64,000 bases of DNA from Malacoraja senta (taxonomy: Eukaryota). The position numbers and the translations under genes are program-made. Positions 2,588-62,507 of this stretch are shown here, in pieces. Position 1 is the stretch's first letter. Each line of letters opens with the position of its first letter. Below the pieces are notes generated by a model, which ran no database searches, was not told where the DNA came from, and saw only the letters and a list, made by a program, of their open reading frames with translations. Location of the stretch: assembly GCA_038087875.1 (NCBI GenBank), contig CM075993.1, positions 4,218,001 to 4,282,000 of the forward strand, read 5' to 3'.

Positions 2588-2861
2588 AGGTATAGAGTGG
2601 AAACAGGCCCTTCGGCCCACCAAGTCTACATCGACCAGTGATCCCTGTATACTAGCACTATCCTACACACTAGGGACATTTTATAATTTTTCCAACCCAA
2701 TTAACCTACAAACCTGTATGTCTTTGGACTGTGGGAGGAAACGCAGAAAATCCACGCGGTCACTGGGAAGAACGTACAAATTACGTACAGACAGCATCCG
2801 TAGTCAGGATTGAACTCGGGTCTCTGAAGCTGTAAGGCAGCAACTCTACCATTGCGCCACC
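2588..2861 (-). mobile_element. HE1/V-SINE-like SINE
   Basis: Same family, CR1-like tail GGGCCGAAGGGCCTGTTTCC. Confidence 0.78.
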
Positions 2862-3214
2862 ATATATTAGGGCAAAACGTCATGAAAAAGCTAGGCTGTA
2901 CCGTGTGAATACAGAATTCTCTAGGATCAGAGGGAAGAGAGCTAAACAGATGAGAACTTAAGCAAATTTGTTATTACTGTAATACAAAACGAATGCACAT
3001 AAAAACGGAAAGAAGCAAACAAAATTAACAGCTAAAGGAATTGAACTGATATTCCCAGAGAAAAATAGCCAACTACCCATTAAGAGAGGGTAAAGTTATG
3101 AATCTGGCAAAAACTAGCAAAATTCACGTGCCATTGCAATCTATCCATCAGCCTACAGAACCACTATGCATAATGTCCTCATAATCCTGAGGATACTGAG
3201 TGAGAGTTGAGAGG

Positions 3215-3429
3215 TTACTGCATGCAGCACGCTCTGAAGAGCAGCATCCCGTCTACTGAGTTGATGCACAAGTCCACGTTCTCGTTGGCGGCAATGAAGA
3301 GCACGGACCCTCGGCAGACGTTGATCTGAGACGGGTCAGCGATGGCCACGGCTTCTCCCCTGGATTACAAGCAGGATACTCGCAGAATCAGTGGAGGATA
3401 TCGTGTATTCTTCCCACGGAACTTGGAAC
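3215..3429 (-). CDS. MPI: MPI exon 8 (last coding exon; two extra G in G-runs as given)
   Basis: ccag|GTT CCA AGT TCC GTG... Removing one G at 3413-3415 and one at 3357-3360 gives [70 protein letters not shown], which matches the MPI C-terminus. Confidence 0.9.
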
Positions 3430-18400: not shown

Positions 18401-21400
18401 CGATGCCAAGACAAACTCTTATCTGCCTGCATCTAATCCCTATCCTCCATTCCTCATGCATTAACGTTCCCACCCAAAAACCTGACTCAAATTCCCAAAA
18501 TGGATCAAGTTACACTGTAGAGTATTCACTTAAAATTAAGTGGTTATTTTTGATTGCAACCAATTATTCAAATCCTACAAGTTATCTCTTCTTCATTATT
18601 CCATTACTATTAACGGGGTACTAGTTGTCTATTAACGGGGTACTAATAGGGGACGATCAGCCATGATCATATTGAAAGGCGGTGCTGGCTCGAAGGGCTG
18701 AATGGCCTACTCCTGCACCTATTTTCTATTGTCTACTTCTCGCATGTATTTCCAACTATTTCACATTTTCATTTTTGTAATTATTGTCACATATTTTCTG
18801 TTTGCATGAAGCATGCTGAGACAGTTCAGATTACATTGAAGTCTTCAACTGTAACGTTTTATAAGCAATAAACGTTAATGCCTGAAGAGCTACCATTATT
18901 GTGATGCAGGACATTTGGCTGCCAATTCGCAAAATGCCTCCATTTATACCTTGAGCCTCTTCGGCAAGGCCAGCGGCATAATCAAGGACGTGTCGCACCT
19001 TGGCCACTCCCTCTTCTCCCCTCTCCCATTAGGCAAAAGATATAGAAGTGTGAAAACGCACACCTCCAGATTCAGGGACAGTTTCTTCCCAGCTGTTATC
19101 AGGCAACTGAATCATCCTACCACAACCCGAGAGCAGTGCTGAACAACTCGCAACCTCATCGGTATCCTTGATCAAACCTTGCTGGCTTAAGCTTGCATTA
19201 AACGTTATCCCTTTTCATGCATCTATACACTGTAATGGCTTGTTTGTAATCATGTATTGTCTTTCTGCTGACTGGATAGCACGCAACAAAAGCTTTTCAC
19301 TGTACCTCGGTACAAGAAATATTACTAAACAGACCAGATTAACAGGTTTTAAAGATGTTGCTTCAGGCAAACATTTCTAGCATATGTGGAAACATTTATG
19401 CAGCGGGCAGAGCTGCTGCCTCTCTGCGCCAGAGACCTAGCCCTTGGGTGCTGGCTGTGTGGAGTTTGCACCTTCGCCCTGTAACCACGTGGGTTTCCTC
19501 CGGATGTTCTCGTTTCCTCCCACATCCCCAAAACATGCTGGTTTAAGTTAATTGGCCTCAGCAAATTGCGCCTAATGTATAGGGAGTGGATGCGAAAGTT
19601 GAATTACATCGTACTAGTGTGAACAAGTTCGCCAAAAGACATGTTTTCTGAACTAAGCTAAAGAATAGAAACAAGGAACTGCAGATGCTGGTTTACAAAA
19701 ATAAGACGCAAAATGCTGGAGTAGCTCGGCTGTCTAGGCAGCATCTCTGGAGAACATGGATAGACAACGTTTTGTGTCAGGACTCTTCTTCAGACTGATT
19801 GTGTACTCTCGGAGGTGGTGAAGGGAGGAGCAGGAAGTGATACAAGGTCAAGGTGCGAGTTAAATAATTGAAGAGTTGCATATTGCAAACTAAACTAAAA
19901 TTGTGCCATGGGACCTTTTACATTCATTTAAAAAATAGTTGAAACCTGTTTAATATCTCATCCAGAAGGCAACGCCAATTCCTTCTCCACCACAAATGTC
20001 TACCTGGATTTAAATGCATCAAACTTTAGAGAGCACTATTGGTTTATCTAAAATAGTAACAAAATCCTGGAGTAACTCAACAGGACAGGAAGCATCTCTG
20101 GAGAAAAGGAATTGTCACTAGGAGAAAGTGACGTTTCTGGACGAGACCCTTCTTCAGATTGAGAGTTAAGGGAGACGAGAGATATGGAAGGGTACGGTGT
20201 GAAAATGACAGATCAAAGCAGAAGTTAATCCAGGAGTGGGTCGCAGCTCCCCAACTGATGGGACCTGTTCTCGCTCTCTTTGAAGGAGGCGCCGCCAGCC
20301 CCAGCGAATGCGGAGCCGACCTGTAATATGAGAGGGAGCATTTTCCCAGTCAGACTTTGTCGACAGTTGGGGTGGGGAGGAAAAAAGTGGGAGAGAGAGA
20401 GAGACCGCACAGTCGGCACAGTTTAATAACGACCCATTAAAATCCACCTTCGGCCACTCGGCAACCTGGGCCGATCTGATCTGACAGCCCTCTCGCTAGC
20501 TCGCCGCGTGCCCGATCCTAACGCAGACCTCCACAAAACCTTTGGGCTTCGGGTAACACGTGCACATAGAGCCTCTGCTAACAAGGGCTGGCGAATTGTG
20601 CTGGTCAACGTGCACTGGCCGAGATGGCTGGGGGAAACGCACCGCAACCACCGCAAACTTGGATCAGCACAGACCCTCCACTCAATCTATCCAATACTAA
20701 AGGGCAGGCATTTCACCGTTAAATGTCTTATACCGGATTGGCGGCTCCTTCACAGGGCCAACCCTGCACTCAGTTTTCCTCGGAGATTAATCTTTGCCTT
20801 AACGGTACATTCACACCGCCTGTAGGTAAAGCATCAGCCCACACCACACTGATACAGTCGCTGCTTGCCTCAGATTAAATATATTTTTACACATAAATTA
20901 TGAATAAAGATAAGTAAATGTTTCAAGCACAAGTAATATTTTCTTATTCCAGTAGCAAACACATTAGGGATAAAATGAAAATAATAAATTCTTTAACTGT
21001 TTGAATATCTCATAATTGCCGATTAATGAACTCAACTAGAACTGGGACACACAGTAGTGTGTGAACAGCAGAACAAGAAAGGAAGCTATTGAGTTGACAG
21101 AATTCTAGATTAATTCCTTAGTAGAATAATTAACAATTTATATACAGTTTATGCAGTGCTGTGTTGGCTTTTTTTAAAATCCCAAATGACCTATCTGAAT
21201 CAGAATGCTTTATTGTCATTGCATGTGTCACATGCAACGAGATTACTGTGTCTCTCCATTTAAAAGAACTTCAAACACTCACATACTCAAACTTTTTATA
21301 CTCCCCCCCCTCCCCAAACCCCATGGATTCACATTTACATAAATTAACACTGTCTCCCACCCCCCCTCCTTCCCCATAACCCGCTCCCGAGACAGAGTTC

Positions 21401-23602
21401 AGTTCCAAGATTGCTGATGGGTAAAAGCTGTTCTTGAGTCTGGCAGTACGTGACTTTAGCGACCTGTACCGGTTTCCTGAGGGCAGCAGTGTGAAAATGG
21501 AGATGACAAAGTGGGGTGGGGGGGGGGGGGAGGGGGATGGGGAGTATGAATAAAAGCTGGGGGGAGGAATGGAGAGTATGAATGAAAGCTGAGGGAGGGG
21601 TAGGTCAATGTCAGGAAGAGGACAAGGTGAGTGGGGGGAGGAAGAGGACAAGGTGGGTGGGGGAGGGAGAGGACAAGGTGGGTGGGGGAGGAAGAGGACA
21701 AGGTGGGTGGTGGAGAGGACAAGGTGGGTGGGAGAGGACAAGGGGGTGGGGAGCAAGACAGGGTGGGGGGAGAGCAAGACAGGGTGGGGGGGAGAGGACA
21801 AGGTGGGTGGGGGGAGAGGACAAGGTGGGTGGGGGGGAGAGGACAAGGTGGGTGGGGGGAGAGGACAAGGTGGTGGGGGGAGGAGAGGACAGGGTGGGGG
21901 GGGGGAGAGGACAGGGTGGGGGGGGAGGGGAGGACAGGGTGGGGGGGGAGGGAGGACAGGGTGGGGGGGGAGAGGACAAGGTGGGTGGGGGGAGAGGTCA
22001 AAGTGGGTGGGGGGGAGGAGAGGACAGGGTGGGGGGGGAGAGGACAAGGTGGGGGGGGGAGAGGACAAGGTGGGTGGGGGGTGGAGAGGTCAAAGTGGGT
22101 GGGGGAGGAGAGGACTGGGTGGGGGGAGGAGAGGACAGGGTGGGGGGGGGAGAGGACAAGGTGGGTGGGGGGAGAGGACAAGTTGGGTGGGGGGGTGGAC
22201 AATGTGGATGGGGGGTGGAGAGGTCAAAGTGGGTGGGGGGGAGAGGGGAGGACAGGGTGGGGGGGAGAAGATGGGGGGGAGAGGACAATGTGGGTGGGGG
22301 GGGAGAGGACAATGTGGGTGGGGGGTGAGAGGTCAAAGTGGGGGGGGGGAGAGGAGAGGACAGGGTGGGGGTGGAGAGGTCAAAGTGGGTGGGGAGAGGA
22401 GAGGGTGGGGTGGGGTGGGAGAGGACAATGTGGATGGGGGTGGAGAGGTCAAGTGGGTGGGGTGGAGAGGTCAAAGTGGGTGGGGGGGAAGAGGAGAGGA
22501 CAGGGTGGGGGGGGAAGATGGGGGGGGGAGAGGACAATGTGGGTGGGGGTGGAGAGGTCAAAGTGGGTGGGGGTGGAGAGGTCAAAGTGGGTGGGGGGGG
22601 AGAGGAGAGGACAGGGTGGGGGTGGAGGACAATGTGGGTGGGGGTGGAGAGGTCAAAGTGGGTGGGGGGGAGAGGAGAGGACAAGGTGGGGGGAGGACAA
22701 TGTGGGTGGGGGGTGGAGAGGTCAAAGTGGGTGGGGGGGAGAGGAGAGGACAGGGTGGGGGGGAGGAGAGGACAGGGTGGGGGGGAGAAGATGGGGGGGG
22801 GAGGACAATGTGGGTGGGGGGTGGAGAGGTCAAGTGGGTGGGGGTGGAGAGGTCAAAGTGGGTGGGGAGAGGAGAGGACAGGGTGGGGGGGAGAGGAGAG
22901 GACAGGGTGGGGGGGAGAGGAGAGGACAGGGTGGGGGGTGGAGAGGTCAATGTGGGTGGGGGGGTGGAGAGGAGAGGACAGGGTGGGGGGGTGGAGAGGA
23001 CAATGTGGGTGGGGGGGAGGACAGGGTGGGGGGGGGGAGGACAGGGTGGGGGGGGGGAGAGGACAATGTGGGTGGGGGTGGAGAGGTCAAAGTGGGTGGG
23101 ATGGAGAGGAGAGGACAGGGGGGGGGGTGGAGAGGACAATGTGGGTTGGGGTGGAGAGGTCAAAGTGGGTGGGGATGGAGAGGAGAGGACAGGGTGGGGG
23201 GGGTGGAGAGGACAATGTGGGTGGGGGTGGAGAGGTCAAAGTGGGTGGGGATGGAGAGGAGAGGACAGGGTGGGGGGGGTGGAGAGGACAATGTGGGTGG
23301 GGGTGGAGAGGAGAGGACAATGTGGGTGGGGGTTGGAGAGGTCAAAGTGGGTGGGGATGGAGAGGAGAGGACAGGGTGGGGGGGGGGGGTGGAGAGGACA
23401 ATGTGGGTTGGGGGGGGGCAGAACTCGTCCCCTCAAGGCATCGGATGAGAGGCGCGGGCACACATTGCCGCCGAAGGAACACGCCGCAGCTCCCTGCCCG
23501 ATGAGACACTTCATCCCCATACACAGTGGGTGAGAGCCGCCGTAACTAGTGACCTGACCGCTCTCTCTTCACGCAACCCTCACCTTTCACCGCCGCCGCC
23601 AT
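3215..23602 (-). CDS. MPI: Mannose-6-phosphate isomerase (type I PMI), 8 coding exons, about 421 aa after correcting two +1 indels in exon 8
   Basis: Spliced translation [21 protein letters not shown]...LWMGAHPKG...LSIQAHPNK...[11 protein letters not shown]...[30 protein letters not shown]...LLFRACCMQ* matches vertebrate MPI, including the Zn-ligand motifs. Exon phases are compatible at every junction. Confidence 0.96.
4135..4420 (-). mobile_element. CR1 LINE 3' fragment
   Basis: [28 protein letters not shown]. Confidence 0.8.
4957..5165 (-). CDS. MPI: MPI exon 7
   Basis: ccag|AT TGC ATA GAA...ATA GAG|gtatga; 209 nt; [23 protein letters not shown]...[12 protein letters not shown]. Confidence 0.95.
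5340..5785 (-). mobile_element. CR1 LINE 3' fragment
   Basis: Degenerate [11 protein letters not shown]...NFF region with CR1 tail. Confidence 0.75.
6489..6664. mobile_element. PIF/Harbinger-type MITE
   Basis: TIRs of about 30 bp (AAGGCTAGTCCCACTTGTCCGTCATTTGCG / CGCAAATGACGGCCAAGTGGGACTGGCCCT); TTA TSD. Confidence 0.82.
7274..7447 (-). CDS. MPI: MPI exon 6
   Basis: gtag|GT GCT GCA...TAT GGA G|gtgaga; 174 nt; [17 protein letters not shown]...[10 protein letters not shown]. Confidence 0.94.
8831..9010 (-). CDS. MPI: MPI exon 5
   Basis: gcag|AT GTC CCG GAG...GAA GAA G|gtttgt; 180 nt; [13 protein letters not shown]...[12 protein letters not shown]. Confidence 0.94.
9185..9475 (+). mobile_element. 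HE1/V-SINE-like SINE
   Basis: GGCGGCACAGTGGCACAGCGG head, GGTTTCCTCCCACAC core, GGGCCGAAGGGCCTGTTTCC tail. Confidence 0.82.
10265..10406 (-). CDS. MPI: MPI exon 4
   Basis: gcag|GAA CTA GCT...TTG AAA A|gtaaga; 142 nt; [47 protein letters not shown]. Confidence 0.95.
10809..10836 (+). ncRNA. Hammerhead-like core in a short Penelope-derived repeat
   Basis: CTGAAGA-A-GGGT-CTCG-ACCC-GAAA-CGTC. Confidence 0.55.
11415..11712 (+). mobile_element. HE1/V-SINE-like SINE
   Basis: Same family, B box GGTTCGATCC. Confidence 0.8.
11881..12081 (-). CDS. MPI: MPI exon 3 (ends at a GC donor)
   Basis: ttag|CTA TGG ATG GGA...CCG AAC AAG|gcaagc; 201 nt; LWMGAHPKG...LSIQAHPNK. Confidence 0.93.
12462..12965 (+). 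mobile_element. CR1 LINE 3' fragment
   Basis: Degenerate CR1 RT C-terminal coding region and GGGCCGAAGGGCC tail. Confidence 0.8.
13303..13616. mobile_element. PIF/Harbinger-type MITE with a truncated right terminus
   Basis: TAA then TGGCCCTGTCCCAC; GTACGAGTTCATTCCAAGAGCTCTCCCGAGTTT is inverted at about 13584-13616. Confidence 0.75.
13991..14118 (-). CDS. MPI: MPI exon 2
   Basis: ctag|TG TTT CCG...TAT GCT GAG|gtattt; 128 nt; [17 protein letters not shown]...KPYAE. Confidence 0.95.
15280..15712 (+). mobile_element. CR1 LINE 3' fragment
   Basis: Same CR1 C-terminal region and 3'UTR, inverted relative to 16616-17051. Confidence 0.85.
16186..16317. repeat. Near-perfect 65-bp-arm palindrome of a Penelope-derived short repeat
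   Basis: 16186-16250 is the reverse complement of 16253-16317 with one mismatch; 2-nt spacer. Confidence 0.9.
16616..17051 (-). mobile_element. CR1 LINE 3' fragment
   Basis: [19 protein letters not shown]...RTRGHSL...[14 protein letters not shown]; short tandem-repeat tail. Confidence 0.88.
21510..23420 (+). repeat. G-rich minisatellite in MPI intron 1
   Basis: 20-25-bp units GAGAGGACAAGGTGGGTGGGG / GAGAGGTCAAAGTGGGTGGGG / GAGAGGACAGGGTGGGG / GAGGACAATGTGGGTGGGG. Confidence 0.95.
23584..23602 (-). CDS. MPI: MPI coding exon 1 (MAAAVK+G)
   Basis: ATGGCGGCGGCGGTGAAAG|gtgagg. The phase-1 G completes GTG (Val) with exon 2. Lies in a CpG-rich patch next to a ZNF143-type motif. Confidence 0.85.
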
Positions 23603-23703: not shown

Positions 23704-24319
23704 GCATTCAGGAAATTTCAGTGTTATGAGAGAGTCAAAAGTCAAGATAGACACAAATTGCTGGAATAACTCAACGGGCCAGGCAGCATCTCTGGATAGA
23801 AGGAATGGGTGACCCGATACATCATCCATCCCTTCTATCCAGAGATACTGCCTGCCCCGCTGAGTTATTCCAGCATTTTGTGTCTATCTTTGGTGTTATC
23901 CAGCATCTGCAGCTCCTTCCTACACATCAATTGTCAAGAATGTTTTATTGTCATATGTCCCAGATAGAACAATAAAATTCTTACTTGCAGCAGCACAACA
24001 GAATATGTAAGAGAGAGTCAAGATTCCCACACTGATCTTTCTATCCTGGGCCTCCTCCACTGTCAGAGTGAGGTCAAACACAAATTGGAGGAACAGCACC
24101 TCATATTTCCCTTGGGAAGCTTACAACCCAGCGATATGAATATTGATTGTGTAGGTCTTGGGCAGAGCAGTTGCCAAATCAAATTGCAATGAATCCTGGT
24201 AGGATGCTTTCCATGTGAATAAAGAAACTGCAGATACTTGTTTAAACTGAAGATAGACACAAAATGCTGGAGGAACTCAGCGGGTCAGCAGCATCTCTGT
24301 AGAAATGGAACAGGGTTTC

Positions 24320-26270: not shown

Positions 26271-29200
26271 TCGGACAAAACTTTAGTGGAAAAGTTATTG
26301 GCGAAAGGGTGCTGGCGTCCTTCATTGACAGATTCAGGCTTTTGTTTCCCCCCCTCCCCCAAAACTTTAAATTAGAGTGTGAACCTGGCAAGGGTTTAAA
26401 GTGGGTAGGAAGGAACTACAGACGTGTAGGAAAGAACTGCAGATGTTGGTTTAAATTTTCAGTGGAGCAGACCCATTCCTTCTCTCTACAGATGCTGCCT
26501 GTCCCGCTGAGTTATTCAAGGAACTGGCTTAAGCCGAAGATTGTCACAAAATGCTGGAGTAGCTCAGCTCACTTGCAGTCTGAAGAAGGGTGTCGATCCT
26601 GAACGTCACCCATTCGAGATGCTGCCTGACCCGCTGACTTCCTCCAGCATTTTGTATCTATCAAGGGTTTAAGGTGAAGCAGGAAACAGGTGCAGCGCAC
26701 TCCTTAAGAAAGGCCAATCCCAGAGTTTGAGTAACGTCCACACCCATTCCATCATGTCGTCATTTTTTAAAATAAACTAGAGTTGCTCTTTAAAATGAAG
26801 TACCATTTGGGAATATTTTTGCACGGATTTGCAACATAGGAGCAAAGCATTCAGAAATCAAGACAAAAGGCACAGGTATTATATCTGGAGACAATCCAAT
26901 CCAATCCAACTTTATTTGTTAAGCACTTTAAAACAACCAATGTTGGCCAAAGTGCTGTACAGAAGAATAAACAAGACATCATAAACAGACAACATAACAG
27001 AACATAACATAACAGCTCACACGAGGCGCAAAAATTACATATGAAATGTTGTAGGGAAGACTATCCATACAAATAATAAAAAGAGGTAGAAAAAAAAATG
27101 ACACAACACACTATAAGAAATTCAACACAAAATGACACAACACACTATAAGAATCACAAAGTGTTGGAGTAACTCAGCAGGTCAGGCAGTATCTGGAGAA
27201 AATGGACGAATGATTTTATTTGTTGGGATCTTTCTTCAGACTGAGAGTTTTTGTTACAGGCACTATATCTGGAGATGCAGTTAGAATCACTTGTCATCAT
27301 TATTCAGCAGAACCCTAGCTTTTGTGATGAAACTGCCTTGAACTGAAACGTTGACTGTTTTGATCTCCAAAACTGCTGTATAACTTGCTGAGTCTTTGTT
27401 CTTCAGATTTTCAGCATCTTAAGTTTATTTATCTGCTTTTTGGTTGCGTGCTTTTGGTGCTACACAGGCTGTCTTCCAGCCATCATGTCATTACGTTACT
27501 TGTCCTTCTTCTTACCCTGCTTACCTTTTGCCACCATAAGCCACTCTGACCATTGAGTAGTTAATCCCATCTCCTCACTGTATGCTGGGCAAATAAATTT
27601 CTCTTAACTTTAGATTTGTTTATCTATGTTTACCTAATCAAATGTTTTCATTGTTTCAACTTATTGCACACCTATTTTCTCCTTTTCCAGAGAAGACTGG
27701 GACTATTTAATATTTCCTGATTATTCACCTTGTATTTTTTTTCCATCTTCAATGCATTTTATGATCATAACTGTTTGTTGGGACTATGTGTGGTCTATTT
27801 TATCTCATCACTTCCTTGACGTAGAAATGTTGCTGCATCCTTATTTACAAATTGACTTAAATTGTCCAGTTCTACATTTTTATTCTATTTTTTTGTAAAC
27901 TATCCCAAATTTATTATGGTATTTATCTATACCATTATATGTGGACCTTTATTTCTGCCTCCAAATACCATAAAGATCTTAAAAATAGTTTCAGAGTTGT
28001 ATCTGGTGGTTTTGAAGAAAGTAAGACATCAAAGTTTTGTGAATTTAGTTACAAAGGTATCATCAGCAGGTCAGATAGCATCTATGGAGAAAAGGAATAG
28101 GTGATGGTTTGGTCGAGACCCTTCTTCAGACTGAGAGTCAGGGGAAGGGGAAACGAGAGATATAATCGGTGATATCGAGAGATATAGGCGTTGGATTAAA
28201 TTTGACATTAAACCACAAAGATCAATTGAGAACGAAGGAATAAAGAAAAGGCTCAAGGAGGAAATTCCTGAGCCTAGTCAAGGAATCTGAAACTACAGCA
28301 CCATCGTTAAATGACAATTCAAGAATTGGAGTAACATGAGGCTATAAAGTAGAGCAAGAAAACTGGGATCGTTGTTTTATAATTAATGCATTACTCAACA
28401 TTGAACCACCTAGGTTAACAAACCTGGGTGGTGGTGGTGGTGATCTGAAGAAGTCTCGACCCGTAACATCGCCTATTTCCTTCGCTCCATAGATGCTGCC
28501 TCACCCACTGAGTTTCTCCAGCATTTTTGTCTACCTTGGGTGGTGGTGAGTGTGACCTGGTACCGAATAGGATGCAGGCAGGAAATTCTGGGTAAATCCA
28601 AATTTACTGAGGATTGAAGGAAGATAAAAATCATGAAATTCATAAATGGGGTCCTGGTTTGAACTCAAAAACTCTTATGTTTAGTGGTGATTAAAGCAAG
28701 AGTCAAGAGTGTTTAATTGACATATGTACTGACAATGGAACAATAAAATTATTACTTGGCCCATTAACACTATAACACACAAATAAATATGTGATCATCA
28801 GTAATACAATGCCAGGCCCCATAATAGTGCAAAATCAAACTCCATAGTGCAATCAGACCAAAGTCGGATTATAGTTAGTTAGTATTGTGCCATGTTCAAG
28901 AGCCTGATTGGTGCTGGGAAGAAGCTGTTCTTGAACATGAATGTAATGGTTCTCGGGCTTCTGTACAATCACCTTCATGGTAGAGAGATGGGAGCATGGC
29001 CAGGATGGTGTGAGTCTTTTGATGATACTAGCTGCCTTTTTGAGGCAGTACCACCTTCAGTGGTGGGGAAGTCAGAACCTGTAATGGATTGGACAATGTT
29101 TACCACTTTCCGCAGCCCCTTGAGTGTTTGCATTACCCAACCAGGCCATGATGCAACCAGTCAGTAAGCACAGTGGGATTATAGAATTAACTGTTAATTC

Positions 29201-32200
29201 TTCTTATCAAGTCCACATCACAAGATTAGAAATTGTTCAGCTAGAGCTGAACACACTACTCGGCATCTGCATACAGTTGCGTCTTGCGCTTCTTGTGCGT
29301 GGTGGTGGAAAGATTGGTGGAAACAGGGCAACGATGTGAACGCTCTTTCCTTGACCCCAACTGTTAAGTTATAGCAGAAGAAGTAGGGCAGCAAAGGAGG
29401 AACGTGGTCAGGTGAACAATTAGTAAAAGCTCATTGCATCTGGAGTAGATCTATGTTCTTCGATTGGATTCCCCAGTGATATCATTGTCTGGGATTCTTT
29501 TTCCATTATTTCACTTCTCTGAATTTAGCAGCTAGGCTGCAAAAATGCTTTTCTTTTGGATTTAGTTGCATATTTTCCAAAGTTTAGGTGCTTCCAGAGA
29601 GGGTATACTTTTGCATTTAAAAACATGCGCATGTATTTGGCACATTGGATTAAAATTCTAGCAATGTACATACAGTGTATTCAATTACACACTTTTAAAT
29701 ATTTATTTAACGGCTGTAAAGTTTTCTCGCTTAAGATGGACTAAGGAGAAGACTTAAATTTCAGTTTCAACAAGCAGAAGAGTAAGAAAAGATTCTCCAC
29801 AGCTGAGGTCGTGTGACTCCCTATCCCTTAAAATGGCCTGAAAGGCTTCAAAGTTGCTATGTCAACACTGAAAAAGGGTAAAATTGGACAGTCTACCCAA
29901 CTGACTTTTTTGTTGCACTCTTTTCTCCTCTCACCATACAGCCTTGCAAATTCTTTCCTTTCAGATAATTTTCATTTCATTTAAATAAATCAATTCAACC
30001 TTCAAAGTCAATTGGTAAATCTATTTTGTACCCTTTACATATTTCCTGCAGTGTTGTGCCCAGAATTGGACACAGTGCTCCAGTTCTGCCACAGCAATGA
30101 CTATAAAGGTTTCTTCCTTGCTCTCGTACTCCATGCCTCTGCTTATAATCAATTTCACAATCTGCTGCACCCCTTTCATCAAAATATACACAGATGCATG
30201 CTGATTTCTATTCTGGTATCTGCTGTTATAAGTCATATTTAGATTATATTGTCCCTTAGTTTTTCTATCAAGATGCAGTGATTCATATTTCTCATTACAT
30301 AGTGATTAATTTCACCATGCTACCGGCATCTTCATTGTTCATGACATCTCAGCCGCAGTACTGAAGAGTGGTCCAGCTGTTGCGATGCCGTTCCAGTACA
30401 ATTTTAAAAAACTGGTATTTATCATTGATGTGAAAAATTGCTCAATTGTTCTGTTAACAAAAAACTGGGTAACTTGAATACCTCGCCTCAACCTTGGATC
30501 AAAGCATTGAATTTTAGAGATGAGAGAGCAAGTCTTCCTTTCACACAAAGGCAATACTTGATTGTGGCATCAAGGTTTCTTGATAAAACAGATATGAAAG
30601 GGAAAATGTAAGCTTTATCTGACTGAATACAGTAGGACTAAACCATCGTGGGCTGATAACGTATGCCACAAATTCCAGACAGACTCCTAATAACCTATCC
30701 TTAATGAACACCACTGAATTATCAGTAATTATCATGGAAGATCTCAAAGGAAACTAAACTGGACTAACCACTGTCTTTGCCGATTAATGCATGTGTAGTA
30801 TAACTACAAGAGCAAGTCAGGTTGAGCATCCTGTGTTAAGGGGTGATAGACTCCTTACTGACATCCACTACAAACCTACCGACTCCCATGGCTATCTGGA
30901 CTACACTTCTTCCCACCCTGCTTCCTGTAAGGACTCCATCCCCCACTCCCAATTCCTCCGTCTACGCCGCATCTGCTCCCAGGATGAGGCGTTCCACACC
31001 AGGGCATCTGAAATGTCCTCATTCTTCAGGGAACGGGGGTTCCCCTCCACCATAGATGAGGCTCGCACCAGGGTCTCTGCCATACCCCGCAACACTGCTC
31101 TCTCTCCCCATCCCCCCACTCACAACAAGGGCAGAGTCCCCCTAGTCCTCACCTTTCACCCCACCAGCCGTCACATACAACAAGTGATCCTCCGTCAGTT
31201 TCGCCACCTCCAACGTGACCCCACCACTCGCCACATCTTCCCATCTCCCCCCATGTCTGCCTTCCGCAAAGACCGCTCCCTCCGTAATTCCCTTGTCAAT
31301 TCTTCCCTTCCCTCCCCTCCCATACCACCCCCTCCCCTGGTACTTTCCCTTGCAACCGCAAGAGATGCAACACTTGTTCCTTCACCTCCCCCCTCTACTC
31401 CATTCAAGGACCCAAGCAGTCGTTCCAGGTGCGACAGAGGTTCACCTGCATCTCCTCCAACCTCATCTATTGCATCCGCTGCTCTAGATGCCAGCTGATC
31501 TACATCGGTGAGACCAAGCGGAGGCTTGGCGATCGTTTCGCCGAACACCTCCGGTCGGTCCGCAATAACCAACCTGACCTCCCGGTGGCTCAGCACTTCA
31601 ACTCCCCCTCCCATTCCGTATCTGAACTCTCTGTCCTGGGTCTCCTCCATGGCCACAGCGAGCAACACCGTAAATTGGAGGAAATGCACCTCATATTCCG
31701 CTTGGGCAGTCTACATCCTGGGGGCTTGAACATTGAATTCTCCCAATTCTGCTAGCCCTTGCTGTCCCCTCCCCTTCATCAGCCATCCGGTTGTCTCCTC
31801 CCCCAGCCCTCGGGCTCCTCCTCTGCCTTTTTCCTTTTTTTCCTTTCTTCTCCCCACCCCCTATCAGTCTGAAGAAGGGTTTTGGCCCAAAACGTTACCT
31901 ATTTCCTTCGCTCCATAGATGCTGCTGCACCCGCTGAGTTTCTCCAGCATTTTTGTGTACCTGTGTTAAGGAGCTTGCTTCCTGGTACCACAAAGCCTTT
32001 ATACCACCTGTGTGGCATGATGTAATGCTGTTTGCTTGCCTTGAAGATAGAACTCCAACACCATCCAGGGGAAAGTTGAATTGGCAATCCATTCAATCCC
32101 CCAAATGTGTATTCCTTTAGTGTTGCACAATGTCAGCTGTGGGTGCCATCTATAAAATGTATTCCTAAGCTTTTAAGACAATGCCTTGTAATATCTTGAA

Positions 32201-35200
32201 TAAAAGACAGCAGGCAGATGAGGGATATTTGCCCTTGCAGGTTCCCCTCCAAATTGCACACCTGCATTGGAAATATATTGCCTTTCCTCTGTTGTATATG
32301 AATCCTGTTGTTGAACAGAACAGTGAGGACCACCTCTGCAAGAAGGACTGCAGCAGTTCATGAAGGTGGCTTATCAGTACCAATTAGCAATTAGGGATAG
32401 TCAATAAATGGTACATTTTCCCATGATGCCCACATCCCAAAAAACAAATAAACTATTTCAAATGCATTTAAAGGGCGTTTCCTTACTAATTGAAAAAGTC
32501 ACAGTTAACGCTCTTGATTCTGTATCATTATTTATAAGGTTGCAGACCTATCAAAGTACAACTACACAAAATAATCTAGTTAACTCCCAAGAAAGAACAA
32601 TATGAAATTTATTTTTGATGTGATGCTATAAAAATATTCACTTTAGTTTGCGCTTTATTTTACCTTATTTCCTCCGTAATTTTCAACGTACTGGTGAAAT
32701 ATAACAATTCTGTGCAGGTTTAACTATCACAGTAAAAATAAATCACGGCTTTATGCAAACTATTAAGATTGTTTACTGTCTACCAATGCAATCTTTGCAC
32801 GTGGACATACATGTGAATTTGTGCCTGGCAAATTCAATATCTTGTATTCTGGTTGGGTAGTTTATAGCCCAAAGGTATGAACATTGAAATGTTCAATTTC
32901 TGGTAACCCATGTTCTTCTCTCACTCTCCATCCATCCGCCTCTGGTCCCCTCACATTCGTCTCCCTCCCCCTTTTAGCTCATCCACCTCCTACGCACGCA
33001 TTACACCCACCCGATCTCCTCCCCATCTGTCGGTTCCTTATGCCGTTCACCTCTCTCTAATAGTTCCCATCATCACCTTTCTTATCTGATTTCAGAACCG
33101 GTTGCCTTTATGCTCCTGTTAATCACCCTCCGGCATTTGTCTCCGCCCCACCTGGCTTCGTCTGCCCTTTAGATTGACTCAAAATGCTGGAGTAACTCAA
33201 CGGCTCATGCAGCATCTCTGGATAGAAGGATAGAAGACCCTTCTTCACAATGAGAGTCAGGGAGAGAGAGACATAGTGATAAGGAAGGCTCCATCTCCAT
33301 CTGCATTTCCACGGCCCTTTCCTTTGTCAGCTTCTGTCACCCTCCCCAACCTGACTCCACCTGCCAATCTAACCCCCGTCTCAACCTTACCTGCCCTGTT
33401 TTACTCCTCTTCACTCTGTCGCCATGCCAATTTTTCGGGTCAACTCTACATATCTTCCCACCACAGATGTTGCTCGATCTACTGAGTTTCTTCTTCAGTT
33501 TGGTTTTGCTCTAATTCCAGAATCTGCAGTCCCGTGTGTGTCCATGAATTTTATCATATTGTTGTATTTATACCATGATGTTTCTGTCTATTAGTCGCAT
33601 GAATCTAGGCAAAGATATTTAGTGACTTATTTCACTCTGACTGCCATAGCCAAGTCCAATTCCATTCTTGTTTGATGTTTTTAAAGAAACCTCAGCACTG
33701 AACAATGATTAACAAAACTCATGTGTAAGAAAGAACTGCAAATGCTGGTTTAAATCAAAGGTAGACGCAAAATGCTGGAGCAACTCAGTGAGACAAGCAG
33801 CATCTCTGGAGAGAAGGAATAGGTGACGTTTTGGGTCGAGACCCTTCTTCAGACAAAACTCATTTTGCTCTCTTCACCTCCCCCTATCTGCCCTCAGTCC
33901 CATTGAGATATACCCAATTGCAGCCACCTTTTAGTAATTCAGAGCAGACTAAGTATAGAACCTATCATGGTTTATCTGTATGCCGAGGAGGGAACTGCAG
34001 ATGCTGGTATACACCGAAGATAGACACCAAATGCTGGAGTAACTCAGCGGGACAGGCAGCATCTCTGGATAGAAGGTGTCTATCCAGAAATGCTGCCTGT
34101 CCTGCTGTTACTCCAGCATTTTGTGTCTATCCACACACCAGTTGATGCATTAAGCTACTAAACCATAACTTCAAATAAATCGACAAACCAATTAAATCCC
34201 TCTTATCATAACCTCTCTCCTGTGGCACATTCTGTTTAATATTTTATACGTAATATTTTGTTAAAGAGTATATATTTTAGTTCAAAGGAGGTATTAAACA
34301 TGAACCTGTGCAAAACCATTTATTAATTGGTGTCTTTCAAATGTAACAGTTACTGTAGAAGAATTAAGTATTGCATTTTCATCAGAAGGATTATAGGACA
34401 TAATTTGAAAAGGGTGGAGATGGAGAGATGTTTTAATATTATTGTATATACAGCAGGGAAGGTTGAGAAAGTGGTTTAAAAAAATCGACAATATCCTCGA
34501 TTTAGGAATAAATGTTACACAAATGGCTAGTGTCTGGAATCCACTACTAGGATTGTAGTGGTGGCAGGTTCAATTATAATGATTAGAGGGGAGCTGGCGA
34601 GATATTTAAAAGGAAAGCCTGAGAAGGTGATGAGGGAGTGGCAATTGCTAGATTTGAGCTACATAGAATCAGTGACCCAAATGGCAATCTTCTGTGTTGT
34701 AACCTTTTCTATGATTTAAGCATCTCGTCAAGTCTCCTTTAGTGCAGACTGTCAGTGTAATATTATTTACGGCAATGTTCTGTTGGTGGAATAATTGTGT
34801 TGAATGCACAACAGTACTACAACAGTTCCCCCTTTTTTGTCCCCTTTTCACAGCATTAGTTTGTGTTTCTAAATCTTTTGTATCAGTTGTTTTTGATACA
34901 AATCAGCCTTAAACTAGATGTGCCGTTCTGGAAAAAATAAAGAATTTTAATAAGTAATCTACATGAATGGAAGCTACAGTGATGCCGCAGTGAGTGCTGC
35001 TGCCTTATAATTCCAACAACCTGGATTTGATTCTGACCTGTTGTTGCAGAGTTTGCATGTATTCCCGGTTACTGCATTTGTTTCCTCGGATGCTTCAGTT
35101 TTCGGATGCTGTTACTGAATTGTCAGGGATAACAAAAGAATATCATTTTAAAGTTTCTTATGTTACTGTTTATTATTTCAGGTTGTTCATAGTTGATACA

Positions 35201-38200
35201 AGCCAATTTTCAAAAAAAATTCTATTTATCGATCTAATTTGTTAATAAATTAATGAACCTTGAGTAAGATGTTTGTTGCATGGGAACCACGGGTTATCTA
35301 TATTTTAGGAATATAAACCTTGTATTATTCCTTTAATTTATATTCTAAGAAATTTAATTTAAACAAATTAATACCATAAAATTTTAGAAAAATAATATTG
35401 TAATGGATCTCCCTGGAGGAATATACCAAAATTAGGCAAATTATATTTATTATCCATGTTTCTCTGGCATTTAATTTTTAATTTATTACATTTTTTACCA
35501 GGAGGTTAATTTTTTAACCTCCTGGTGAAGGAAATGAAGAAATGTAAGTTAACAATAGCTGAGAACATCATTAAAGGGCCTGTCCCTCTTACGCGGCCTT
35601 TTCGGCGACTGCCATCATAGGTCGCCGAAAATTTTCAACATGTTAAAAATTCAGTGGCGACCAGAAAGACGCTACAACCCTTTGGGTGACTAGGAGACCT
35701 CTCACGGCCATAGAGGCGACCCCCTGGCGACCTCTCACGACCATACAGGCGACCCCCTGGTGACATGCCCCCTGGTGACACCCCACGACATGTCGCCTGT
35801 ATGGTCGTGAGAGGTCTCCTAGTCACCCAAGAAGTCGTAGCGTCTTTCTGGTCGCCGCTGAATTTTCAACATGTTGAACATTTTCGGCGACCTATGACGG
35901 GTGCCGGCAGTCGCCGAAAAGGTCGTGTAAGTGGGACAGGCTCTTAACCTTGAAGGCCTTTGTTATCTTATTTTTGAAAAAGAGTTCAATCTGGTAATGA
36001 GGAGGAAGTTCTTTTTACTAGTAGCCACTGAGCAAAACTTAACTGATTTTTTTTTGCATTGTTAGGCACAAAGACACATAGTTTGACCAATCTTGTCTAG
36101 GTTTTATGGTTTAAATTAATTTAAGCATTGGAGTTGAAAGCTGGCTTGTGCATCTTTTCATCAAATGTAATTAGGTTGATGCTTAAAATGATCAACAATT
36201 GGAATTGAGTTGTAATCTTGGATGCCACTGGATTTTTTGAAGCACTTCGACCTGGCACTGGAATTTTCCAGTAGCGTTTGCACTAAACATTTGATTTTAC
36301 ACTGGTTTCTTTTTCCAGTAGCAACTGGTACTGGATTTTGTGACTTGCAAGCAGCTTGTCAATTAGGTTATAATAACGGTTGGTGTTTTGAAATACGCAG
36401 CTGATTGATGTGGGATGATGCAGCTAACATTGGATCAGTTTTATCAGTAGGGAAGGGTTCCTGCTCAAACATTCCAATGCTATGTCTGCATGTTAGAATC
36501 AAACTTTGGCTGCTGGTGGCACTTATTGCACCACCCTACATTCATGCCAAAGTTGGAGTGTGGCCTTTCAGGAAATGGATAACATTTCATAGAAAATAGG
36601 TGCAGGAGTAGGCCATTTGGCCCTTTGAGCCAGCACCACCATTCAATATGATCATAGCTGATCATCTAAAATAATTACACCGTTTCTGCTTTTTCCTCAT
36701 ATCTCTTGATTCCTTTAGCCCTAAGAACTACATCTAACTCTTTCTTGAAAACATCCTGTGAATTTGCCACCACTGCCTTCTGTGGCAGAGAATTCCACAG
36801 ATTCACAACTCTCTGGGGGAAACAAATTGTCCTCATCCCAGTCCTAAATTGCATACCCCTTATTTGTAAACTGTGACCCCTGGTTGTAGACATCCCCAAC
36901 ATCGGGAATATTTTTCCTGCATCTAGCCTGTCCAATCCTTTAAGAATTTTATGTGTCTATAAGATCCCCTTTCATTCTTCTAAATTCCAGTGAACACAGG
37001 CCCAGTCGACCCATTCTTTCAATTTCAATACCTAAATTCTGTTTTTATGGTGTTTTTAATGCAGCGAATATGCTTATGAGCAGCATTGTCATTTATGCCA
37101 AGTTACATTAGTGTGAGTGACCAAAACTTGGCTAAAGACACAAAGCATAAGCAAAAAGGAGTAGACCATTTAATTCCTTACACCTGCTTTGCCATTCAAG
37201 GATATCATAGGATGATATTTTAACTCATTGCAACTTTTCCAAGCTTGATCACTTATTTTGAGAATGAGACTCTTAGTTCTGGAGGTCCATCCAGGGAAAC
37301 ATCATCCCTGCATCTACCATGTCAAAACTGGAAGAATTTGTCCCCTCGACATGACTGGGAATAAGAGAAAAATAAGTTCGCTCTAATTTGCGGAGAAGGT
37401 GGGGGAGGGATGTCTTCTCCCAATGACGGCTTATGCATGTCCCACTGTGCAACTGCCTCACAACTTCTACTATCATTTTGTATGATCAAACAGGGGTTAA
37501 GAGACTCGGTCCCCTAATCCAAATTGAAATAGACTTGGAATTAATGGAGCTGCTTGAAGATGATGTAGGGAGTTACAGAACTCGCCATCCTTACATCTGA
37601 TGATATGGCTACCAATGTGGAGTGATTGACCCTCTGGATGCACACGATTGTGAAAACTGGTACCTCTTGAATGGAGTAGGACTGGAGGAGATTGCGATGG
37701 GAACCATGAAGTGTTTTGAAAACTGGGATGCAAATTTTGGAATGAAACCATTGACTACTTAAGATAGACACAAATAGCTGGAGTAACTCAGCGGGAGAGG
37801 CAGCATCTCTGGAGAGAAGGAATGGGTGATATTTTGGGTCGAGACCCTTCAGACTTGTTAGGGATAAGGGAAACGAGAGATATAGATGATGATGTAGAGA
37901 GACCGCTTAATATCAGCTAAATAACTCCGATTACTCCTTGAGCCAACAATGCTAATGTGAAATGAAATGTTTAAGAAGTTAAATTGAGAATTTTTCAGTC
38001 TTTTTATGCTGGAATTCTTCACAGTCAAGGCTGAATTGATAATGGTGGTGTGTAATTAAATTGCATGAGGCAGAGGATAGACATTCAATCATATGTAACT
38101 CAAATTCAATTAGGCTGATCTTGTTTATTCCGGAGAGATTTTGCGAATAGATGTGCATGTATTCCTCGTGAATACTCTCTACAGTGTTATACTAAGAATA

Positions 38201-41200: not shown

Positions 41201-44200
41201 CTCCATAGATGCTGCCTCATCCGCTGAGATTCTCCAGCATTTTTGTCTACCTTCGATTTTCCAGCATCTGCATTTCCTTCTTAAACATGACTTGTTATTT
41301 TATGTTGACCTAATCCAGGGGGTGGGAGATTGCAACCTTCACGTGGTCGGCCCTGTTTCGACTAATGCAATCAACCCGGCGTGCACAATCAAACAAGATC
41401 AAATAGAACAAGTTGTCCTACAACTTTAGGCTGTGCGCGCCATACGCAAGAAGAAGAACCTAATCCAGGATTATATTTGTGATTGTTATTTACTGTATAA
41501 AGTGAGAAGGTTTTGTTAAATACAGTATTTCTCAAAGCTATTTTTTTGCTGAAGAGATAGATTTAACCCAATAAGCACTGAACAGAATAAATTGTTTAGT
41601 GCTTATGGTATCTATTGCATTCTTTGTTATATTATTGTTTTTAATTGAATTGTTTTGTGTAGGACATCCAAATAGGCAAAATAAAACGTCATTATTTATA
41701 ATAGACCAGTTAGAACAATTCTACATATAGATTTACAACAATTGTGCTTTAATAATACTGCAGCGATTTATGGACCATGAATAAGAGAATGTATTTGTCA
41801 CTTTGGTTGCGCAATGAATTCTGAATTCTAACGTTCAGTGCTATATAAAGTTGGATAAGGCACAGGGGTTAATTCTTACATTTTACTGGTTCAGATGGGC
41901 ATAACATGTCATGGACAATATCCGAATGAAAGCAATACATTCACATGCTGTCTTGGCCTAAATTGCTGCTCCTTCCCCCTCCCCTCCTCAACAAAGCGAC
42001 AGTTGTTTGTTCAGCTTGCAGCTCGCCATTGCTGATATAAGATGGCTACTGTGTCTGCTCATAAACACTGGGTGCACTTTAAAAACAACTTGTGGCAACA
42101 TGAGGCATGGTATACATGAGTTTTAGTTTTACTGTATATTTTCTACAATCACAAATGACCTTTATTGCAGATTTGATTCCTGATGTGTGGAAAGGGTCTG
42201 ATGATATTCAATTCAAAGTTAGCACCTTGGTATGTTCCTAATTTTATTTTTACTCTTTAGACTCCTGCTGCAACAGATACCAAAGTTCCAAATGCACCGA
42301 AGGTTGCTCCTTCTCAGCCAGCAATCTTGCAGCCTACAGTGGAACCCAGTCCTCAGGTATGCTAAATAATGGAATGTTATGGAATTCTGTTGTGCAGTTA
42401 ACAGGCACAATAAATGTAAAATGTTAATAGAAGCTGACTTTATTCAGTTAGTGGTATTTACTAACTTAATTCACGTAATTCAAACTGTGAATTGACAGAT
42501 TGAACCAACCCATAAGAACAATCTACACCACAGATGAATGCACATTCTTTCACATAGATGGGGATGAATGATCCTGCCTAATCCATAGCATGGGGTCCCC
42601 ATTCATTACCCTCCTGTGTGACATCAATTAACTCTGACTGAATATTTTCCACAGTAGATTTAAAAAACCCATGACAGTATTTGAGAGGGAGTGGATCTGA
42701 ATCCGAGCCAACTGTTTTTCATTGCTGGGTAAGCTGTAGCTCTGTGTGGGGTACTCTCATCTCTTAAGTCTGATTCAAGTTTTGGTTCAAGTTCTATTCT
42801 GCAGAATAACCACACACATCTGGACTGCTCGCACAGTATTAAGGGAGTGTTACACTTCCAGAGCATTTTTTAGATGAGACACTGAAAGGAGGGATTGTCT
42901 GCTGTCTCAAGTGGAGCAAAACATCCTGTGACACTATGTCAGGGAAGAGTGAGGGAGATTTACTTGATGTTCAGACCAATATTTATTCCTTATTTAACAC
43001 AGAAGAACAAATGTGTCATGCCATTGTTATTGACAGTATTTTGTGCACTAATTTGCAACCATTCATATTATTTTATAATAGTAGCAACCCATCAAAAATT
43101 GCTTGATTGACGACAGACTCTTTCATGACTTAAAAGGAATGTGGAAAAAAAGAGTAGTTTGAATAAATAATAACACTTGGGCTGCACGGTGGTGCAGCGG
43201 TAGAGTTGCTGCCTTGCAGCGCTCGCGGCACCGGAGACCCGGTTCGATCCCCACTATGGGCGCTGTCTATACGGAGTTTGTACGTTCTCTCCATGACCTG
43301 CGTGGGTTTTCGAGATCTTTATTTCCTCCCACACTCCAAATACATACAGGTTTGCTTGGTATAAGTTAAATTGTCCCTAGTGTGTGTAGGATAGTGTTAA
43401 TGTGTGGGGACTGCTGGTCGGTGCAGACTCGGTGGGCCGAAGGGCCTGTTTCCGCGCTGTATCTCTGAACTAAACTAAAGTAAACTTGGGAATTATTTGC
43501 CTGTAAATGAAGGAAATTAAATATTGGGTGTTTACAACGTGCAACAAAGATTCTAAAAATGCAGCATAATACAAAGAACAGGGTGAAGCATCATTGAGAA
43601 TCGAACTGCAGATGCTGGAAATCTGAAATAAAACCAAAAGTGCTGGAAACATTCAGCAAGTCCGGCAGCATTTGTGGATGAAAAACAGTTAACATTTCAG
43701 GTTGTTGTGTTATTGTCCCCTGGTTCAAGCTAGCTTGGTCTTACAACTCTTAAAGCATCCCTTTTAATTTGTTGACATCTTATAATTTTGTGTATTAATA
43801 AACAACTCCCTTATTACCATTTATTCTTGTGTCCCATTTCTTGATCGTATTCCTGCAGTAGAGATGTATCATTTCTGAATTTGACTTCATAGACAATTAA
43901 CCAACACCAGGAATGAGAAAATGGGGAACTATAGTTAACCTTGCTTCATCAGTCGGAAATTGCTACAACCTATTATTAGGAAAGTGGTGGCATGTCATTT
44001 AGAAAAAATTAAAAGGAGTGGTGAGAGTCAACATGGTTTCATGAAAGGGAAATGATGGTTGACAAATTTGTTGGGAGCCTTTGTGGTTGCAGCTAGTAGA
44101 TACGGATATGATATTTTGGAGTTTCGGCATACTTAATCAGATAATGGAATGGTTACTGCACAGAAGGAAGTCATTCGGCTAATAATATCCATCACAGGTC

Positions 44201-61176: not shown

Positions 61177-62507
61177 GCAATTTGCTTCTCCCCTTTAATG
61201 GCAGAAGAAGCTCCAGGGCCAACAATGTGCCATCTTCTGAATCTGTAACAATCTCTGACGAAGGGTCTTGACCCGAAACGCCACCCATTCCTTCTCTCCA
61301 GAGAGGCCGCCTGTCCCGCTGAGTTACTCCAGCTTTTTGTGTCTATCTTCGGTTCGGTTTAAACCAGCGCCTGCAGTTCTTTCCTGCACAATGTGTCATC
61401 ATATCCAGCCTTGGATGGATATTTTTCAATGCAACTATGTGCAATAACTGAAATAGATTCCTTAAACTTATCTACACAAGACGTAGATAGTGAGTTATCC
61501 ACACACAGTTTAGTGGCATTTAGTAAATCTTTAGTAAAACTCTGCCCTTTCTCCCCATTGTAGCTATCTGCACCTGATAGTTTGAAAGCAGAGATACAAT
61601 CGGCTGCTGAGTGTTTCCCTTTCTGTCAGCTAATCGGTGAGCAAAATTGAAAGTGAACTACTCCAACAGTCTAAATTACTGCACAATCATTGCACTTGAT
61701 ACAACTGCAGTCAAAGGGGTGTAACATGGCTACTCTTAAATCTTATGTTGAACCGCATCTTTTTCTGATTTATACTTTGTTATGGATCGGGTCAAATTGT
61801 AATAGGTGAATCAGTATATTTATGAAATGCTTTGCTATCCAGTCAGTGAAAAGACGACATGTCTACAATCAAGCTGTCCACTGTGTACAGCTACAGGATA
61901 AAGGGAATAATGTTTAGTGCAAGAGAAAGTCTAGTAAAGTCTGATTAAAGATAGTCCGGGGTCTCCAATGAGGTAGATGGTAGGTCAGGGACGCTCTGGT
62001 TGGTGGTTGGATTATTCAGTTGCCTGATAACAGCTGGGAAGATACTGTCATTGAATCCGGAGATATGTGTTTTCACACTTCTGTACCTTTTGCCAGAGGG
62101 GAGAAGAGGGAGTGACCAGGGCGAGACTCGTCCGTAGCCTTGCCGAGGCAGCATGAAGTGTGGATGGAGTCAATGGATGGGAGGTTAGTTTGCTGGTGGT
62201 CTGGGTATCATCTGGAGGACATCCGTAACATCCGGTATATGTTATTAATGAAAGAAACGTGTAAATGAGCAAACGCGATCCATTTTGGAATTCTGAAGTT
62301 GGGTACATGTCTCTACCTGTTAAAAACCGCCAAAATGTTGAATTTATTCGCTGTAAAAAAATGTGGAAGTCGGGGTAAGTGTGAGGGACATGTACCCAAC
62401 TTCAGAATTCCAAAAGTGAAACGAAATGAAGGTAAAGAGAAGCGACAGCTGAAGGGACAACAACAGCTAAAGTGCTTGGCGAACATTGGCCGTGCAGATA
62501 TCGGAAT

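Follow-up and report, generated by a model that had tools for sequence, protein, structure and literature searches.

A decayed short retroposon in a skate genome, probably derived from a Vingi-like LINE, with a predicted P4-less HDV/CPEB3-type ribozyme head

Here we analyse a short minus-strand insert in a 64,000-nt stretch of the Malacoraja senta genome (contig CM075993.1, positions 4,218,001 to 4,282,000; the whole stretch is called the window). We are fairly confident that the insert is a decayed non-autonomous retroposon, namely an internally deleted Vingi-like long interspersed nuclear element (LINE), whose RNA likely trims itself at the first base, G1, by a predicted hepatitis delta virus (HDV)/CPEB3-type ribozyme without helix P4, and which is likely mobilised in trans by a Vingi-like reverse transcriptase (RT)/endonuclease. 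We observed a multicopy family with target-site duplications (TSDs) and a boundary at G1, a LINE-derived head, end of the open reading frame (ORF) and tail, helices with compensated changes, and a LINE with a like head type and tail.

Results

The insert in the window

The insert spans positions 29358-29198 (161 nt) and is flanked by identical 9-mers, the 5' TSD copy at 29359..29367 and the 3' copy at 29189..29197 (AACTGTTAA as read on the plus strand). It starts with GGGG, whose first base stands directly after the 5' TSD copy, and ends in the tail AAGAAGAA. An earlier note on this DNA had described the insert with its size, strand, 9-bp TSD, tail, 3' hairpin and a G1 adjoining the TSD, and we re-found all of these in place.

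The predicted ribozyme head of 52 nt (29307..29358, on the minus strand like all parts of the insert) would be cleaved 5' of 29358 (G1). It comprises the 5' strand of P1 (29353..29358, 6 nt, with a G1.U wobble to 29325), the 5' strand of P2 (29344..29350), the P3/L3 hairpin (29331..29343), the 3' strand of P1 (29325..29330), the G-U of P1.1 with a 5-nt loop in place of P4 (29318..29324), the joining segment J4/2 (CCAA, 29314..29317), in which 29317 is aligned with the catalytic C of CPEB3, and the 3' strand of P2 (29307..29313). Behind the head lie the 5' arm of a predicted end-to-end stem (29291..29302), a remnant of the C-terminal codons and stop of a Vingi-like ORF (29226..29273), the 3' arm of the stem within the 3' untranslated region (UTR; 29213..29225) and the terminal motif with the (AAG)n tail (29198..29212; the motif is ACTCGAT in the family and ACACGAA in the LINE). 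An 8-bp hairpin (29253-29234) falls inside the ORF remnant codons.

Compared to the majority sequence of its family, this copy has three private changes in the core: 29335, equivalent to G25, is A; 29331 in P3 is changed from C to T; and 29330 in P1 is changed from G to T, which breaks one pair. Its ORF remnant contains two extra stops and did not score on the C-terminus profile described below (179/1000 shuffles). As G25A left no observable cleavage in the HDV ribozyme of C. briggsae (PMC13635239), the window copy is, by analogy, probably dead, as the earlier note had suspected.

A second element lies on the plus strand at 41319..41458 (140 nt) and has a P4-less head with a 7-bp P1, a predicted end-to-end stem, an (AAG)n tail and a TSD of 10-11 bp (41309-41318 and 41459-41468). 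In the following, the family of the insert is called A and that of the 41319 element B.

Copies in the genome and their 5' boundary

Both families are abundant in the host genome (1.94 Gb). A search for family A gave 1,944 first-look candidates, and all 40 scored matches were nearly full length at 90-100% identity, with flanks that cannot be aligned between copies. Exact degenerate patterns of the A head and tail matched the genome 1,142 and 976 times, respectively, with no match for the reversed-pattern controls; the 1,142 heads are a lower bound. For family B, the search with the 41319 element gave 1,424 candidates, of which 40 were scored. A pattern for P4-less heads with a 7-bp P1 matched 4,606 times (control 0), and among the 100 matches listed, 99 belong to B and 82 stand at distinct places by our count, from which we estimate roughly 3,800 heads for family B.

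Among 86 distinct A copies, 59 have an exact TSD of at least 7 letters, as do 43 of 57 B copies; it ends at G1 in 46 and 35 of these, respectively, when G's of the flank are assigned to the element. The 5' end at G1 that the earlier note had proposed is therefore where the TSD ends in most A and B copies with a TSD, and the copies stop at the G-run rather than extending 5' of it. Furthermore, we examined 30 A loci anchored at the tail, among which two are duplicates and one has an internal insertion. Here, a recognisable head is reached in 26, the initial bases are missing from one, three have a truncated or interrupted body, and there is no long LINE among them. Four runs, each with an organism code of its own, also have contigs that contain family A; one of these organisms may be the species studied here. 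In two of the runs, numerous contigs part from one another precisely ahead of G1 (457 and 32); these are contigs, so RNA ends are not visible. The non-CpG divergence is 5.6% for A heads (27 copies), 5.0% for B bodies (27 copies) and 0.9% for full LINE copies (8 copies).

Two variants were observed among the copies. An extra C in the 3' strand of P1, with the four G's retained, occurs in the A copies L081, L083, L088-L090 and L142, that is, in 6 of the 86 copies, a sample enriched by the Rfam search, and in 1 of 100 listed head-pattern matches. In family B, the copy L269 (G000:C1:311471102-311471146) has its first P3 pair changed on both sides from A-T to T-A; this is a single copy and may be due to chance.

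A Vingi-like LINE and the origin of the short families

The genome contains a LINE at nine loci of about 3.14 kb that are 96-98% alike, with one open frame of 1,014 codons in one locus. The ORF encodes an APE endonuclease and an RT and has a C-terminal CCHC-like motif; a domain family search gave no RNase H match. The TSDs of the LINE adjoin G1 of a complete P4-bearing ribozyme, and its 3' end is GACACGA-(AAG)n. Homologs of the protein occur in lancelet, urchin, moths, psyllids, fish and Anolis, including a multicopy Anolis protein (22-member cluster) with 49% identity, and a PDB search returned only distant RTs of LINE-1, R2 and introns. Vingi elements have been described as compact, with a single ORF and an APE, sister to Ingi and without RNase H (PMC13708176). 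The partner LINE fits this description, and on this fit we call it Vingi-like. The anatomy of the LINE, its homologs and the ORF ends described next agree with the lead to Vingi given in the earlier note.

Three older low-copy short families with P4-bearing CPEB3-type heads are represented in the genome by the loci L177:1486-1770, L074 and L075/L078/L084/L086; these are C, with a length of about 280 nt, D, with about 255 nt, and E. A 3' end of E was looked for and none was found.

The head of family A is homologous to the LINE head (E 2.5e-5), and its body reads YADAEKCVQLWLNNF-stop, which corresponds to the last ~16 codons of a Vingi ORF; several LINE homologs terminate in CVQLWLNHI. Against a profile made from the C-termini of 91 homologs, the ORF end of A scored 11.2 bits with 0/1000 shuffles in copy L158, and 4/1000 shuffles in copy L005. 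Family C has both an APE start and an ORF end (0/1000 shuffles), and family D has an ORF end (18/1000). The bodies of A and B show no mutual BLAST similarity, as the earlier note had said; their heads are homologous. By sequence comparison, the heads of both families are homologous to the P4-bearing head of the 3.1-kb LINE and of the three older families, so that the two families, once called unrelated, share ancestry in their heads with one Vingi-like LINE head.

We conclude that family A is, as judged from its parts, an internally deleted Vingi-like LINE consisting of a ribozyme-like head, an ORF end, a 3' UTR and an (AAG)n tail. Because the ORF end of A is unlike that of the resident LINE, and because A and B are older than the LINE copies, the parent of A appears to have been another, older Vingi lineage than the young resident LINE.

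For the young LINE itself, open frames of 1,014 and 1,008 codons are present in the regions G000:C8:934632 (L099) and G000:C4:35486633 (L246/L268). Among about 150 scored copies, most are 5'-truncated or broken, and 10 heads look intact by pattern. Along 358 residues, the L099 ORF shares 83% identity with an annotated protein of the teleost Aldrovandia affinis. Should the host be a cartilaginous fish, this would suggest that the young LINE was transferred horizontally between distantly related fishes.

The ribozyme-like head

In the majority sequence of family A, P1 is GGGGTC/GGCCCT (6 bp, with G1.U), J1/2 is AA, P2 is GGAAAGA/TCTTTCC and P3 is GCG/CGC, with L3 TTCACGT; then follow GT, a 5-nt loop and CCAA. 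The family B head has a 7-bp P1, P2 GATTGCA/TGCAATC and P3 ACC/GGT, the same L3, GT, a 5-nt loop and CGAA. Common to both are L3, CCCTGTTTC and C-N-A-A. P4 is missing from both, with 7 nt separating P1 from the J4/2 C, and the heads are 52-54 nt long. A keeps G1.U, and each of its P1 strands is one base shorter. The earlier note had the P2 sequences and the common elements right; its P3 for A, GCG/CGT, holds for the window copy but not for the family, as CGT is private to that copy. It had not recorded the P4 loss, the P1 lengths in A and B, the ORF remnant, the pairing between 5' and 3' regions or the CPEB3 match. The majority sequences of the families are complementary in P1, P2 and P3.

P1 helices of 6 or 7 bp are normal in HDV-like ribozymes (PMC4908430), and P4-less HDV-like forms cleave and are active in phages (PMC10879173 and its preprint). 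A genome search for A-type heads with P4 or a longer insert gave only two tandem duplications. When we looked for P4-less families whose first P3 pair is pyrimidine-purine, 5 matches at 3 places turned up, all of them B variants; the control gave 2. Using the HDV numbering of the cited papers for G1, U20, G25 and the catalytic C, we find G1.U, U20, G25 and the first-position C of J4/2 in all six family majorities (A-E and the LINE). The P1.1 bases (C22-G37 and U21.U38 in CPEB3) are present and invariant; covariation therefore cannot show that they pair.

For the covariation analysis we took 12 heads from the genome that represent the six families, and 17 pairs in P1, P2 and P3. The proportion of paired cells is 89.6%, compared to 72.1% in shuffled sets and 40-56% in slid controls. 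In total, 11 of the 17 pairs (38 cells) are changed on both sides, and these include 6 of 7 pairs in P2, 2 of 3 in P3 and 3 of 7 in P1. The covariation score is 0.572 compared to 0.213 for shuffles, none of which reached as high a value (0/500). This supports selection on the fold of the head, as the earlier note had claimed from families A and B. These two families alone are thin evidence, and the case rests on all six, five short ones and the LINE, where at least two ribozyme-headed families had been predicted. The covariation between A and B is divergence with compensation from one ancestral head, not independent origin. Among 57 B copies, a sample partly chosen by pattern, two non-CpG variants are frequent; both are in unpaired sites, J1/2 (13 copies) and the second base of J4/2 (14 copies).

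Pairing between the two ends

In all five families for which both ends are available (LINE, C, D, A and B), a segment that starts 3-5 nt after P2 pairs with the segment directly before the terminal motif. When one bulge or mismatch is allowed, these stems have 9 bp in the LINE, 11 in C, 8 in D and 12 each in A and B. Out of 20,000 flank windows, 136 pair equally well for the LINE, 65 for C, 119 for D, 4 for A and 2 for B (0.01-0.7%). At least 12 bp are retained in 48 of 76 A copies and in 31 of 55 B copies, and the bodies fold with z-scores of -2.4 to -4.0. The predicted stem is likely a recognition element; this would account for the retention of both LINE ends.

Relationship to the CPEB3 ribozyme

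The Rfam family RF00622 (CPEB3_ribozyme) has a cut-off of 35 bits. An Rfam scan of the whole window found no ribozyme at E values up to 1; scans of short stretches did match. The A copy L005 matches CPEB3_ribozyme with 29.1 bits (E 3.8e-6) and P4 deleted, and family A shares with the CPEB3 ribozyme an identical stretch of 19 nt across P3, L3 and P1. In the genome search with RF00622, 51 of 59 scored matches were listed and 39 are over the cut-off, and none of 14 control genomes matched. Thirty loci correspond to 12 LINE heads, 6 A copies, 3 C, 5 D and 4 E copies. LINE, C, D and E heads score above the cut-off, with LINE heads reaching 64 bits, and the 6 A copies among the 30 loci exceed it as well (37.0-43.7 bits). 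Counted by hand, the D majority (5 copies) agrees with the Rfam consensus in 58 of the 63 positions that lie outside L4, among them all 14 stem bases of P4; the decayed D copy L072 matches at 54 of 67. The P4 sequences of LINE, C and E differ from the consensus.

CPEB3-type heads also precede Vingi-like ORFs elsewhere. A core-pattern scan of metagenomes gave six loci. One of them, L216, bears a 59-bit head with a Vingi-like ORF (48% identity) behind it; Rfam does not recognise L214 as a ribozyme, and the other four, two near-identical pairs, are without a Vingi ORF downstream. Two close Vingi-like 5' ends were found by protein in genome contigs; L222 begins with a 42-bit head, and L224 has head relics without an Rfam match. 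The two pairs without an ORF, L217/L218 (66.5 bits) and L215/L219 (51.1 bits), are CPEB3-type, each pair being the same locus in two records, and are possibly other domesticated or non-autonomous heads.

The match of the related heads to CPEB3 likely points to the source of the mammalian CPEB3 ribozyme. A 2021 paper states that no outgroup from outside the mammals exists for this ribozyme. It has been proposed in general that mobile elements were the source from which intronic ribozymes were recruited (PMC7761336), HDV-like ribozymes have been recorded in lamprey, lancelet and urchin (PMC8256844), and a Vingi relic is known from the human genome (PMC5753468). We infer the direction, from Vingi to CPEB3, from the distribution and this human relic. 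On balance, we lean slightly towards the view that Vingi retrotransposons carry the CPEB3-type ribozyme as their standard 5' head and that the mammalian ribozyme is a domesticated Vingi head. The skate genome would then hold the missing outgroups, together with thousands of P4-less versions on hitch-hikers whose mobilisation needs only the ribozyme, the end-to-end stem and the (AAG)n tail.

Discussion

Proposed mechanism and its alternatives

Under the proposed model, the elements would be transcribed by read-through from host promoters, and the predicted ribozyme would cleave the RNA 5' of G1. A stem of 8-12 bp would then fold the region behind the ribozyme onto the region before the tail. 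A Vingi-like RT/endonuclease would be supplied in trans, and target-primed reverse transcription from the (AAG)n tail would produce the TSDs of 9-13 bp. Cleavage, promoter and trans-mobilisation are modelled on the precedent of L1Tc/NARTc, SIDER and the R2 SIDEs (PMC4035085, PMC6765202).

Several observations weigh against parts of this model. Self-cleavage at G1 and the resulting RNA ends are predictions, and because family A joins a 6-bp P1 and the loss of P4 with a CPEB3-type P1.1 of a single G-C and a competing fold, its ribozyme may be slow; the nested minimum-energy fold of A mispairs the 5' strand of P2 with the L4 region (-10.6 compared to -9.5 kcal/mol for P1 and P3). Family A and B copies score below the Rfam cut-off (29.1 bits for L005, 17.6 for the window A copy and 12.3 for the window B copy), and some well-folded SIDER heads are inactive in vitro (PMC4035085). 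The rows of the covariation set were hand-picked and are related, so that its result is support and not a probability. Regarding the end-to-end stem, the pairing rule was fitted after the sequences had been inspected, the arms of A, B and D partly cross-pair, and other windows often pair better than the terminal one when free energy alone is considered; a free-energy ranking against 1,370-4,670 windows did not discriminate for the LINE, C, D and three of five A copies. Lastly, our search did not recover the LINE from which A was derived, as the 151 C-terminal matches scored out of 3,693 candidates represent one young family, to which 10 more diverged-looking matches also belong, and an ORF remnant in B is not significant (208/1000 shuffles).

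These points leave room for a head whose fold binds a protein or protects the 5' end, or for a DNA promoter that starts at G1 like Pr77 in L1Tc, with A and B heads that do not cleave or do so too slowly. The P4 loss, short P1 and competing fold of A, as well as the inactive SIDER heads, would suit this explanation; in L1Tc the head serves as promoter and as ribozyme (PMC8256844), and a promoter would produce an equally sharp boundary at G1. However, the sequences of P2 and P3 turn over while their pairing is retained, which a DNA promoter would not require. The C at the catalytic position, G25 and G1.U are retained in all six families, and G1.U is restored in A, whose P1 strands are each one base shorter. 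We thus regard a non-cleaving head as unlikely, albeit worth keeping in mind.

Mobilisation might instead depend on a non-Vingi LINE such as RTE, with only the head being Vingi-like, and B in particular may differ in origin, having no detectable ORF remnant and another terminal motif; the placement of the partner by description allows for this as well. Yet Vingi-like ORF ends occur in A, C and D, with an APE start also in C, and TSD length, tail and end stem agree with the LINE, which makes another partner very improbable. The elements are short, non-coding and of high copy number, as an ordinary Pol III short interspersed nuclear element (SINE) would be, and a chance fold within a repeat may also be considered. 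We find either scarcely credible: homologous heads exceed the Rfam CPEB3 cut-off, the helices covary, and the RF00622 matches, the covariation and the Vingi-like ORF ends contradict both. A tRNA-derived SINE was rejected in particular, as the head is ribozyme-like and no tRNA was called in four loci.

Other features of the window

The window contains an open frame of 317 codons for a Tc1/mariner transposase (50639-51592, plus strand; DDE_3 and HTH_Tnp_Tc3_2) and two Penelope-like fragments with a GIY-YIG match (30788-31755 and 39731-40422, plus strand). A G-rich minisatellite with units of about 22 nt lies at 21300-23500. An abundant repeat with inverted halves (e.g. 2309-2507, 23746-23932, 33760-33854 and 37763-37857) forms long hairpins and gives spurious microRNA matches, and large inverted repeats at 62313-63876 have arms of up to 339 nt at 95% identity.

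Comparison with known systems

Deleted LINEs with ribozyme heads are already known as a kind (PMC5786205). In that work, Kojima (2018) described bipartite LINEs, internally deleted derivatives that include those of Vingi-1_EE. Like the elements presented here, these keep the 5' and 3' ends of an APE-RT LINE that has one ORF and lacks RNase H, are non-coding and are dispersed. The list of six clades with a 5' ribozyme given there (R1, R2, R4, RTE, Ingi as well as LOA) does not name Vingi, and that work leaves open why both ends are retained; the skate elements combine a CPEB3-type ribozyme fold with paired ends. NARTc, RIME and SIDER of the L1Tc/ingi clade, Ingi being the sister clade of Vingi, and the R2 SIDEs are likewise short deleted retroposons with an HDV-like head that frees them from co-transcripts (PMC4035085, PMC6765202). 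Their hosts are trypanosomatids or insects and their heads bear P4, whereas here thousands of P4-less heads occur in a vertebrate.

The mammalian CPEB3 ribozyme is single-copy, lies in intron 2 of CPEB3, is restricted to mammals and has P4 and a 7-bp P1. In contrast, family A is dispersed and multicopy, lacks P4 and scores below the cut-off. The minimal HDV-like (drz-Mtgn) and theta ribozymes also lack P4 and have a short loop between P1.1 and J4/2 (PMC10879173). However, nearly 99% of them are found in Caudoviricetes, often beside tRNAs, and that work reports none in the human, mouse and protist genomes searched there (PMC10879173). The theta context, a phage genome, often with a tRNA directly on the 5' side, differs from that of A and B, which are in a eukaryotic genome, in retroposon context and without a tRNA in four loci. 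The loss of P4 in A and B was likely independent of the phage forms and started from a Vingi head.

Our full-text literature searches returned no report of a Vingi 5' ribozyme, of P4-less HDV-like heads on vertebrate retroposons, of pairing between Vingi ends or of a Vingi origin of CPEB3, although some of it may already be published or listed in Repbase. P4-less HDV-like ribozymes, so far almost exclusively known from phages, would have thousands of loci in a vertebrate. Furthermore, the end-to-end stem may explain, in a way that can be tested, why Vingi-type LINEs yield derivatives with both ends (PMC5786205), and it bears on Vingi-based templates for gene insertion, which carry both UTRs (PMC13708176).

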